Origin: Treponemataceae bacterium
GTDB taxonomy: Bacteria; Spirochaetota; Spirochaetia; Treponematales; Rectinemataceae
Direction of reading: 5' to 3'
NCBI GenBank assembly: GCA_963677895.2
Contig: CAXXGJ010000038.1
Span: forward strand, 160,001-224,000
DNA: 64,000 bases
A program made the position numbers. Positions 1 through 3,000 of the stretch are shown in pieces (position 1 is the stretch's first letter; every line of letters begins with the position of its first letter).

Positions 1-3000
1 AGCAAGTCTACAAGGCCACGGTCAATCCTTAATCAGTCATCAGCCGCCTCTGGCGGGACGAGGGCCGCGCGGGAAGATCCGCGCGGCCCTTTCTTTTATC
101 CGGGGCGCGATTATCGCGCGGAGCTAGCAGTGCCCCGTGGAAATCGCCTATAATCGCCACCAAAGCCGCGGGCAGCCATCGAGCCACCAGCGGCCACCTT
201 CGGGACATCGGCGCGCTTTTAAGAGCCAGTTCGCCGACCAAGCCCCGTCAAGGCGCGCCGCCGTAACCGTCGGCGGTGCGAAAGCAGGGCTCGCGAAACA
301 AAATACGTTTCGCACGCCGATTCCTCAAGCTAAGCTCCCGGAATCGGCGTACAGGAGTTATTTCATGGACAACAGCATCAGCATGGAGAAGATCGTCTCC
401 CTGGCCAAGCGGCGCGGCTTCGTCTTCCAGTCGTCGGAAATCTACGGCGGACAGTCCGGAGCCTGGGACTATGGTCCCATGGGCGTCGAACTGAAGAACA
501 GGATCGCGCGGTTCTGGTGGAAGGAGATGACCCAGCTCCATGACGACATCGTCGGCCTCGACGCCGCCATCCTCATGCATCCCCGTGTCTGGGAAGCCTC
601 CGGCCACGTCGAGAACTTTACCGACCCCCTCGTGGACTGCAAGAAGTGCAAGCAACGCTTTCGCGCGGACCTGATAGACCCGGAGAAGCTGGCAAAGAAA
701 ATATGCCCCGAGTGCGGCGGCGAACTCACCGACACCCGCAAGTTCAACCTCATGTTCAAGACGAACATCGGCCCCGTGGACGACGGCTCAGGCCTCATCT
801 ACCTCCGCCCCGAGACGGCCCAGGGCATCTACATCAACTACAAGAATATCGTCCAGTCCAACCGCATGAAGATTCCCTTCGGTATCGCCCAGATCGGCAA
901 GGCCTTCCGCAATGAAATCGTCACCAAGAACTTCATCTTCCGCACCTGCGAGTTCGAGCAGATGGAGATGCAGTATTTCGTGAAACCAGGCGAGGACGAG
1001 AAGTTCTTCGACTACTGGAGAGAGCAGCGCTGGGCTTACTACGCCAAGCTCGGCGTTCGCATGGACAAGCTGCGCTGGCACCGCCACGGCCCGGACGAAC
1101 TCGCCCACTACGCCAAGGACGCCTACGACATCGAATATGAATTTCCCATGGGTTTCAAGGAGCTCGAGGGCGTCCACAACAGGACGAACTTCGACCTCAA
1201 CCGCCACCAGGAATTCTCCGGAAAGGATCTCCAGTACATCGACCAGGACGACGGGAACGCGCGCTACATTCCCTTCATCATCGAGACGAGCGCCGGGCTC
1301 ACGAGGCAGCTCCTCATGGTTCTCTGCGACGCCTACGAAGAGCAGAAGGTGGCCGACAAGGGTACGGACGACGACTGGAGAACAGTGCTCCACTTCCATC
1401 CCACGCTCGCGCCCATCACGGTCGCTGTCCTCCCTCTTATGAAGAAGGATGGCTTGGCCGAGCTCGCCAAGGATATCCGTGCCGAGCTCAAGGAAGATTT
1501 CTCGACCGACTACGATCAGGGCGGCGCCATCGGCCGCCGATACAGGCGCCAGGACGAGGTGGGAACGCCATTCTGCGTCACCATTGACTACCAGACGAAA
1601 GAAGACGGCACCGTCACCGTGCGCGACCGCGACACGATGCAGCAGGAGCGCGTCGCCGTTTCCGAGCTGTCAGGTTATATAAGAGCCAGGATCAAGGCAT
1701 ACAAGCGGGCATAAAAAACACAGTCGACGATTTGGTCATCATCGATGCAGGAAGAGCATTGGTGGGCTGAAACGAAAACAAAAGAGAGCCGCGGCTAGAA
1801 GCCGCGGCTTTTCTCGTTATTTTCCGAGAACGCCTTCTTTGCAGGCTTTGGACACAGTGAATTTTACCGCTGTCTTGGCCGGGATCTTGATCGTTTCGCC
1901 GGTAGCGGGATTCCTGCCAGTGCGGGCCTTGCGCTTGGCGAGCTTCAGGATTCCGAAGCCGGGAAGCGTAAACTTCTTGTTTTTTTTCACTTCTTTGTAA
2001 GACACTTCGGCTAGAGCCTCAAGAAAGCCCTTCACGTCTTTTTTGGTCATACCGGTCTTCTCGGAAAGCGTGGTCACTAGCTGGGCTTTTGTCATCGCTG
2101 TTCCATTCGTCGCCATGGTTCATCTCCTTGAAGGAATCTCTGGGTCCAAACCGGTAAATGGCGCTTTGCCAGAGGGCTTCGCGCACATTGCAACACGGTT
2201 CTATATGGCAATAATAGCACATGTGGAAAGAAAAATAAAATAATATTTGCGTAGTATTGGAAATATGCGTCGTAGATATTGAGAAAATAACGTCATCATC
2301 GATATACTGCCCTTCAAGGCAAGGAGATCTCATGAATAAAGCGCTAGAAATACTGAAAGAACGAGGGTTCATCCAGCAATGCACGGACATGGAAGGATTG
2401 TCCAAACTCATGGACGAAGGACCTATCACTCTGTATGAAGGCTGCGATCCCACAGGACCTTCGTTGCATATCGGGCATATGGTGCCCTATTTCGCGATCA
2501 GGCATCTCCACGAAGCCGGAAACAACGCCATCGTCCTGATGGGCGGCGGAACGGCGCGGATAGGCGATCCTTCCGGCAAGACGACCATGAGACAGATCAT
2601 CAGCTATGAGGAGATCGACGCCAACGCCAGCCGCTTTCTCGCGCAGCTTGACAATTTCATGTCCTTCGACGGGAAGACCCTGTACTCGGACAACAATAAG
2701 AACTGGCTGGCCGATCTCAACTACATCGACTTCCTCCGCGATATAGGCAGGCATTTCTCCGTCAACCGGATGCTCTCCTTCGAAGCGTACAAGATGAGGC
2801 TGGAAACTGGCCTTTCGTTCATTGAATTCAACTATCAGCTCCTGCAGAGCTATGATTTCCTCCAGCTCTACAAGCGTCACGGCTGTCGTCTCCAGGTGGG
2901 CGGGGATGACCAGTGGGGCAACATCGTGGCCGGCATCGAGCTCATCCGCAGAGTGGAAGGAGCCGAGTGCTTCGGCCTCACTTTCCCTCTCGTGACGACC

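Follow-up and report, generated by a model that had tools for sequence, protein, structure and literature searches.

The leader of glyQS, the gene for an alpha2-type glycyl-tRNA synthetase (GlyRS) in a Treponemataceae bacterium of the Rectinemataceae, is a real, apparently undescribed cis-regulatory RNA. Its sequence predicts an element of ~100 nt with a pseudoknot, in which a hairpin with an anticodon-like loop (P3) is one arm of a larger RNA. The structure is backed by covariation and is linked exclusively to glyQS; CC at loop positions 35-36 is invariant while position 34 is free, and the loop is retained across unrelated leaders. By analogy with Escherichia coli ThrRS, we consider it likely that the alpha2 GlyRS binds this leader and represses its own translation.

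Results

The window analysed here is a 64,000-nt stretch of contig CAXXGJ010000038.1, and its position 1 corresponds to contig position 160001. The features of the glyQS locus are collected in Table 1. An earlier note on this DNA had assigned the glyQS product to the alpha2 type, and comparison with the PDB bears this out: alpha2 GlyRSs were matched with an E-value of 5e-153, the GlyRS anticodon-binding domain PF03129 is encoded at 1421-1687, and the genome holds one full-length match. Given the terminators at both ends and the TATAAT box, glyQS looks monocistronic with a leader of ~200 nt, and transcription would start near position 161. This TATAAT site was not listed by a consensus promoter scan; a -10-like box occurs upstream of the motif in 31/32 family leaders. 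An RNA-library contig of one relative covers the motif and the start of glyQS, but it reaches upstream of the presumed start, and such contigs carry no strand or start information. The leader (161-367) folds with a z-score of -4.71, and none of 200 shuffled sequences was equally stable. Beyond glyQS lie a convergent HU-like gene (1817-2116, minus strand) and a tyrS-like gene (2332-3564, plus strand) with a very short leader, both named from their translations.

Table 1. Features of the glyQS locus in window coordinates.
Feature	Position	Strand	Basis
Intrinsic terminator of the gene upstream of glyQS, setting glyQS apart	60-91	+	14-bp stem, T tail
Putative promoter: -10 TATAAT (149-154), weak -35 CTAGCA (124-129)	124-154	+	sequence
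P0, 5' hairpin, variable in sequence	165-194	+	folding
P1, 197-206 with 242-253, A.C mismatch, 3-nt CAA bulge (239-241); encloses P2	197-253	+	
P2, hairpin inside P1, sequence free, length nearly fixed	207-238	+	
Pseudoknot 5' strand GAGCC, within the P2 loop	223-227	+	covariation
P3, 10-bp anticodon-arm-like hairpin adjoining P1	254-280	+	covariation, folding
Anticodon-like loop UAACCGU of P3, ACC at 266-268, invariant CC at 267-268	264-270	+	loop-free search, alignment
Conserved linker after P3, here AAAGCAG	281-287	+	alignment
Pseudoknot 3' strand GGCUC, pairs with 223-227	288-292	+	covariation
P4 (293-313) and P5 (314-350), spacer hairpins, optional and free in sequence	293-350	+	folding
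Shine-Dalgarno AGGAG	353-357	+	sequence
glyQS, alpha2 glycyl-tRNA synthetase, 449 aa	365-1714	+	PDB matches, PF03129
Terminator-like stem on both strands, in the gap from glyQS to the HU-like gene convergent with it	1784-1812	.	

The earlier note had described a lone hairpin before glyQS. That hairpin, P3, is real, but P1, P2, the linker and the pseudoknot surrounding it had all been missed. Covariation was assessed in an alignment of 48 distinct sequences from a set of 57, those left out being mainly sequences with a divergent P1. Over the whole element, 82.9% of the cells pair and two-sided change is seen at 25/35 pairs, while slid controls bring pairing down to 33-46%. By helix, pairing and two-sided change amount to 87% and 6/9 pairs for P1 and to 73% and 9/10 pairs for P2, P3 is 92% paired, and all six pseudoknot pairs show two-sided change. 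No shuffle in 500 reached the level of the alignment, and none of 20,000 permutations reached the difference between pseudoknot strands scored with their own partners (12.8) and with swapped ones (10.4), both being tests that ignore the relatedness of the sequences. The stem of 9-10 bp given in the earlier note is 10 bp long here, but its fourth pair is open in 31/48 sequences, usually as G.G.

With register correction, 5/5 pseudoknot pairs are formed in 53/63 sequences, and the change of the second pair from C-G to U-A is seen both in this family and in a genus of the sister family. The linker reads AAAUCAG in 57/63 sequences. Though the sequence of P2 is free, the end of the 5' pseudoknot strand lies 23-27 nt before P3 in 60/63 sequences, a spacing that would be expected if the 7-nt linker must span the gap. 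Spacer hairpins of the P4/P5 type are absent in 19/56 relatives, where the Shine-Dalgarno (SD) sequence begins as little as 7 nt past the linker; one, two or three hairpins separate the pseudoknot from the SD in 7, 28 and 2 of the 56. A U5 tract between motif and SD was found in 0/56 sequences, i.e. there is no terminator there.

Competing structures were also considered. The single-sequence minimum free energy fold places a helix at 241-247/285-291 that would replace P1 and the pseudoknot; it is 82% paired across the alignment but shows two-sided change at 0/4 pairs and is unsupported, though it may occur as an alternative conformer. RNAalifold on a first MAFFT alignment, in which P1 and P2 were misaligned, consequently recovered P3 and one spurious short stem only. 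The P2 loop was rejected as a second anticodon, since it becomes GUC, GGC or GCU along with its pseudoknot partner. In this genome the P0 loop holds a second GAGCC (181-185) that could compete for 288-292 and is not conserved.

P3 lies 85 nt ahead of the ATG at 365, and its loop is ~100 nt from the AUG. The consensus of the loop in 57 distinct sequences is Y-W-D-C-C-D-D, with U33/C24 at position 32, A52/U5 at position 33, U28/A20/G9 and never C at position 34, CC in 57/57 at positions 35-36, and G51/A4/U2 at position 37. Positions 32 and 38 covary (U.U 32, C-G 21, C.A 3, U.G 1). The invariant CC, variable position 34 and pyrimidine at position 32 that the earlier note reported thus hold throughout this set. 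Its description of the loop as a copy of the tRNA-Gly anticodon loop overstated the likeness: the mimic shares size, Y32 and CC with the tRNA-Gly loops of this genome (UUGCCAA, UUCCCAA and CUUCCAA). U33 and A37 are not among the shared features, nor does its stem copy that of tRNA-Gly. A stem of at least 5 bp and the CC agree with the picornavirus-type element NNNCCA(N) recognized by human GlyRS (GARS); its A37 is present in 4/57 pseudoknot-form loops versus 24/31 loops of the simple form described below.

A strict pattern with CC fixed was searched in 185,579 genomes and gave 28 matches, 27 of them directly before glyQS; the other, in a deltaproteobacterial locus (L083), is antisense within a coding region and is a chance match. 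When the loop was left free and metagenomes were searched, 32 of 72 matches lay before glyQS, with CC at positions 35-36 in 32/32. The remaining 40 comprise a full motif at a contig end (L179) and 39 chance matches, 10 of which have CC.

Conservation across the Rectinemataceae, as claimed in the earlier note, applies to part of the family: the hairpin with an AAAUCAG-type linker is present in 32/58 family loci, with the loop ~42-130 nt from the AUG, and missing from 26/58. In members without the motif, glyQS mostly stands directly behind another gene or has a shorter leader. A covariance model of the whole element matched 33/69 family genomes at E <= 1e-5, many of these matches being training sequences. 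Out of sample, it matched five genomes of genus g165 in the sister family f3, and fetching the loci revealed a sixth g165 genome with the whole motif, six in total. In the g165 copies the pseudoknot has covaried, and the loop, of 8 nt, ends in CCGU. No match was obtained in 38 genomes of f2 or 37 of f4, and among 149 genomes across the class there were three weak matches only, outside the order (E 0.002-0.047), of which L203 is without the motif. According to a GlyRS tree obtained by quick search from 86 selected loci, g165 is basal to the f1+f3 group with moderate support, and the pseudoknot form may therefore have been the ancestral one in that group.

Some family members carry other arrangements. 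Locus L211 (G006:C85:9949-10067) holds an orphan second promoter and whole motif ~390 nt upstream of the motif copy at glyQS, and its near-identity to the glyQS leader of genome G005 (L025) suggests leader replacement by recombination. Genus g20 and relatives (L004, L008-L011, L048, L054) share another short conserved glyQS leader in which Y-A-U-C-C-N-N apparently lies in a large bulge, not a hairpin loop; two g20 genomes have the pseudoknot motif instead. The short leaders of L049, with a 4-bp hairpin and the loop AUUCCCA 36 nt before the start, and of L006, with three GCCCAAGCU repeats, are possible independent mimics.

The earlier note regarded the signal as nearly confined to this family, and in this it understated the spread, which includes the whole motif in g165 and NCC hairpins in f3, f4 and f34. 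In f3, the majority of the remaining leaders adopt another, simple fold with one hairpin right before the SD (loops such as GCGCCAU, GCGCCAC, GCUCCAU, ACGCCAC and UCACCAU), and some leaders carry one or two NCC hairpins in f4 or one in f34. We applied a uniform test for a local hairpin of <= -8 kcal/mol, read in a 7-nt register, in leaders of at least 45 nt as delimited by an automatic rule. CC at positions 35-36 was found in 28/45 leaders of f1, 23/32 of f3, 7/29 of f4 and 5/10 of f34, and in 0/4 of f2 and 0/26 of other families of the class. The same test was positive in 3/379 leaders of other genes of this genome (G000) and in 4/96 other genes at the same loci (3/29 where GC is at least 60%), and 30 rounds of shuffling gave means of 2.6, 1.2 and 0.1 and maxima of 5, 3 and 1 for f3, f4 and f34, respectively. 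A fuller f34 sample had 6/30 positive leaders in three genera. The simple hairpins typically lie 25-52 nt before the start codon; 31 loci (21 in f3, 6 in f4, 4 in f34) have one within 60 nt of it, and their loops show G18/U7/A6 at position 34 and A37 in 24. In 20 loci from other classes, several of them with start codons mis-assigned by the script, no NCC hairpin was found. A stricter scan of 29 other Spirochaetia leaders also gave none because it demanded five perfect pairs, and relaxed scans found them.

In the f3, f4 and f34 leaders, the sequences indicate that the NCC loop is kept while the pseudoknot core is gone and the stems are unrelated. These data argue against a class-wide rule, as many relatives are negative, and the relatives are not independent samples. 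That the leader is a structural element without a ligand, acting in stability or as a standby site with a CC that was inherited rather than selected, is very unlikely. The sequences are related, and the GC-rich genomes make CC common, as its frequency among the chance matches illustrates, but the CC stays fixed where adjacent positions and entire stems vary, the CC hairpin is enriched over three controls, and the element stands before one gene only.

Several leaders of these families contain further structure. In f4, L246, L247, L249, L260, L263 and L271 share an enclosing stem, two hairpins with CC loops and, before the SD, a third hairpin whose loop is a conserved CAGG, together a separate motif; the first loop might alternatively pair with GG in the loop of the third hairpin. 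In f3, the NCC hairpin of L220-L223, L227, L229 and L363 is preceded by a conserved region of several stems that begins GACACC or GACATC, and in the pseudoknot form, too, a spacer resembling ACACC comes after P0.

The spread of the loop also bears on whether the element could be an orphan riboswitch or the site of another factor. Its invariant core (P1 GGGAC, CAU bulge, AAAUCAG linker and pseudoknot) could bind a small molecule such as glycine, adenylate, Ap4A or ppGpp, or another protein, with the CC loop as a tertiary contact. Invariant unpaired nucleotides in linker and junction and a pseudoknot beside the SD are typical of aptamers, and in some sequences (L044, L022) the pseudoknot strand abuts or overlaps the SD. 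We nevertheless regard this as unlikely: there is one gene context only among the real matches (27/28 in the strict and 32/32 in the loop-free search), the core is lost in f3, f4 and f34 leaders where the NCC loop is kept, and spacer hairpins part the pseudoknot from the SD in 37/56 sequences. Rfam gave no riboswitch match on window positions 1-3000.

Nor did Rfam report anything else of relevance there, or on 11 other glyQS loci at the gathering cut-off, in agreement with the lack of Rfam and T-box matches recorded in the earlier note. A T-box (RF00230) with ACC at the specifier position was detected before a thrS-like gene of this genome (G000:C21, L359 324-592, minus strand; 65.9 bits, E 6e-14, below the gathering score). 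This T-box, together with T-box control of glyQS in Firmicutes, would make it conceivable that the glyQS leader senses RNA, either as an atypical T-box for tRNA-Gly or by pairing of the loop with the SD (UCC with GGA), and a few loops (GCUCC in L225 and L234) are complementary to GGAGC. Such a function appears highly improbable, because the model that finds the thrS T-box has no match on the glyQS leader, because the loop reads as the anticodon NCC and not as the codon GGN, and because pairing with the SD requires U34, which is present in only 28/57 and 7/31 loops of the two forms.

Discussion

The autorepression by analogy with thrS that the earlier note proposed is supported as the leading hypothesis, for which the strongest evidence is the occurrence, out of sample, of CC loops near the SD in the unrelated stems of other families. 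It draws on the role of C35 and C36 in tRNA-Gly identity, on the binding of NCC hairpins by GARS, and on the ThrRS precedent. In the available parts of the sources, the tRNA-Gly consensus includes no anticodon positions other than C35 and C36, both of which serve Thermus thermophilus GlyRS as identity elements (PMC9976931), human alpha2 GARS binds NCC hairpins, including ACC, via its anticodon-binding domain (PMC3384309, PMC12781879), and E. coli ThrRS uses mimics of the anticodon arm upstream of the SD to repress its own mRNA, through a clash with the 30S subunit (PMC7373986).

As we envisage it, the leader would fold into P1-P2 plus P3, and the linker would let the strand behind it pair back onto the P2 loop, which would compact the RNA and keep P3 near the ribosome-binding site, with the pseudoknot and the spacer hairpins positioning P3 relative to the SD. 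P3 would then show N-C-C within its 7-nt loop. A surplus of GlyRS over tRNA-Gly would allow the C-terminal anticodon-binding domain of the enzyme to contact C35 and C36, and the bound dimer would hinder loading of the 30S subunit; tRNA-Gly would compete for the enzyme and thereby relieve repression.

GlyRS might instead bind the loop with a different outcome, namely activation, stabilisation of the mRNA or co-translational assembly of the dimer. GARS stimulates translation when bound to picornavirus NCC hairpins, and the SD in our leaders is unpaired with a mean probability of 0.46 in nested folds, only about half. Outcomes of this kind seem quite unlikely to us, since most simple leaders have the hairpin 25-50 nt upstream of the AUG, where a bound dimer would collide with the 30S subunit, as ThrRS does according to the accessible text of PMC7373986, and since positive feedback of the enzyme on its own synthesis would be physiologically unlikely.

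Several observations stand against a GlyRS operator. Most pseudoknot-form loops have A33 and G37 in place of the U33 and A37 of tRNA-Gly, whereas viral GARS elements favour CCA, and none has C at position 34. Neither the linker nor the pairs at the apex of P3 vary, for which loop recognition alone is no explanation, the pseudoknot is separated from the SD by one to three hairpins in the majority of sequences, there is a single anticodon hairpin here, and many relatives, which are not independent samples, lack the element. The invariant core of P1, bulge and linker could offer a further recognition site, contacted by the other subunit or the catalytic domain of the dimeric GlyRS, or by a small ligand. 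The element would then represent a new class of compact tRNA-shaped or dual-input operator, and the simple hairpin operators seen in neighbouring families would have arisen from it through architectural turnover around a fixed NCC loop; this we put forward as a speculative and rather doubtful extension of GlyRS autorepression.

Among known systems, the E. coli thrS operator also imitates an anticodon arm and stands in the leader of a gene for a class IIa synthetase with the same type of anticodon-binding domain, and it likewise keeps the identity nucleotides 35-36 and lies just upstream of the SD, according to the sections available of PMC7373986 and PMC9976931. The putative glyQS operator belongs to another enzyme and another phylum. 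It has one anticodon-like domain in this genome and family, whereas thrS has two for the dimer, as do some f4 leaders, and it sits in a pseudoknotted P1-P2-linker fold that is not described for thrS in the portions of the literature at hand. With one anticodon arm, another enzyme and a new fold, the glyQS leader is not strictly of the thrS-operator family.

The GARS elements of the poliovirus IRES domain V and the Mengovirus UTRs also present NCC, including ACC, in a 6-7 nt hairpin loop to an alpha2 GlyRS's anticodon-binding domain (PMC3384309, PMC12781879, as far as their accessible text goes), but they are viral elements in eukaryotes, are stimulatory and are not on the mRNA of the enzyme itself. 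They prefer CCA, by ~twofold over CCC in the consulted part of PMC12781879, whereas the pseudoknot form here has CCG. Yeast AspRS, HisRS, MetRS, GluRS, ValRS and GlnRS bind the mRNAs that encode them at structures resembling an anticodon; this system is eukaryotic, and GlyRS is absent from the list in the part of PMC9976931 available to us. T-boxes (RF00230) of glyQS and glyS share leader control of the same gene function but differ in binding tRNA via a GGN specifier codon and an antiterminator, neither of which was found in the glyQS leader. In the literature searched, no bacterial GlyRS operator or spirochaete glyQS motif was found, a statement that leaves absence from print unestablished, as subscription literature was mostly outside reach. 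No such motif was found in main-text passages of a 50-genome ncRNA survey (PMC11109978) or of PMC5737381, and the accessible review text names no bacterial self-repression by tRNA mimicry besides that of E. coli ThrRS.

If GlyRS autorepression is true, GlyRS would join ThrRS as a self-repressing bacterial synthetase, in another phylum and with a new pseudoknotted fold, and the leader would illustrate how glyQS control might dispense with a T-box in an organism whose thrS relies on one. The natural series of leaders with a pseudoknot, a single hairpin, a double hairpin or none isolates the recognised nucleotides. The GlyRS of E. coli is an unrelated alpha2beta2 enzyme, which makes that host suitable for pairing the alpha2 enzyme with a leader reporter. 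Lastly, in two loci from other classes of the phylum (L418, L422), inspection by eye showed an apparent 3' part of a tRNA gene just upstream of glyQS, which in L422 includes a GCC anticodon loop.
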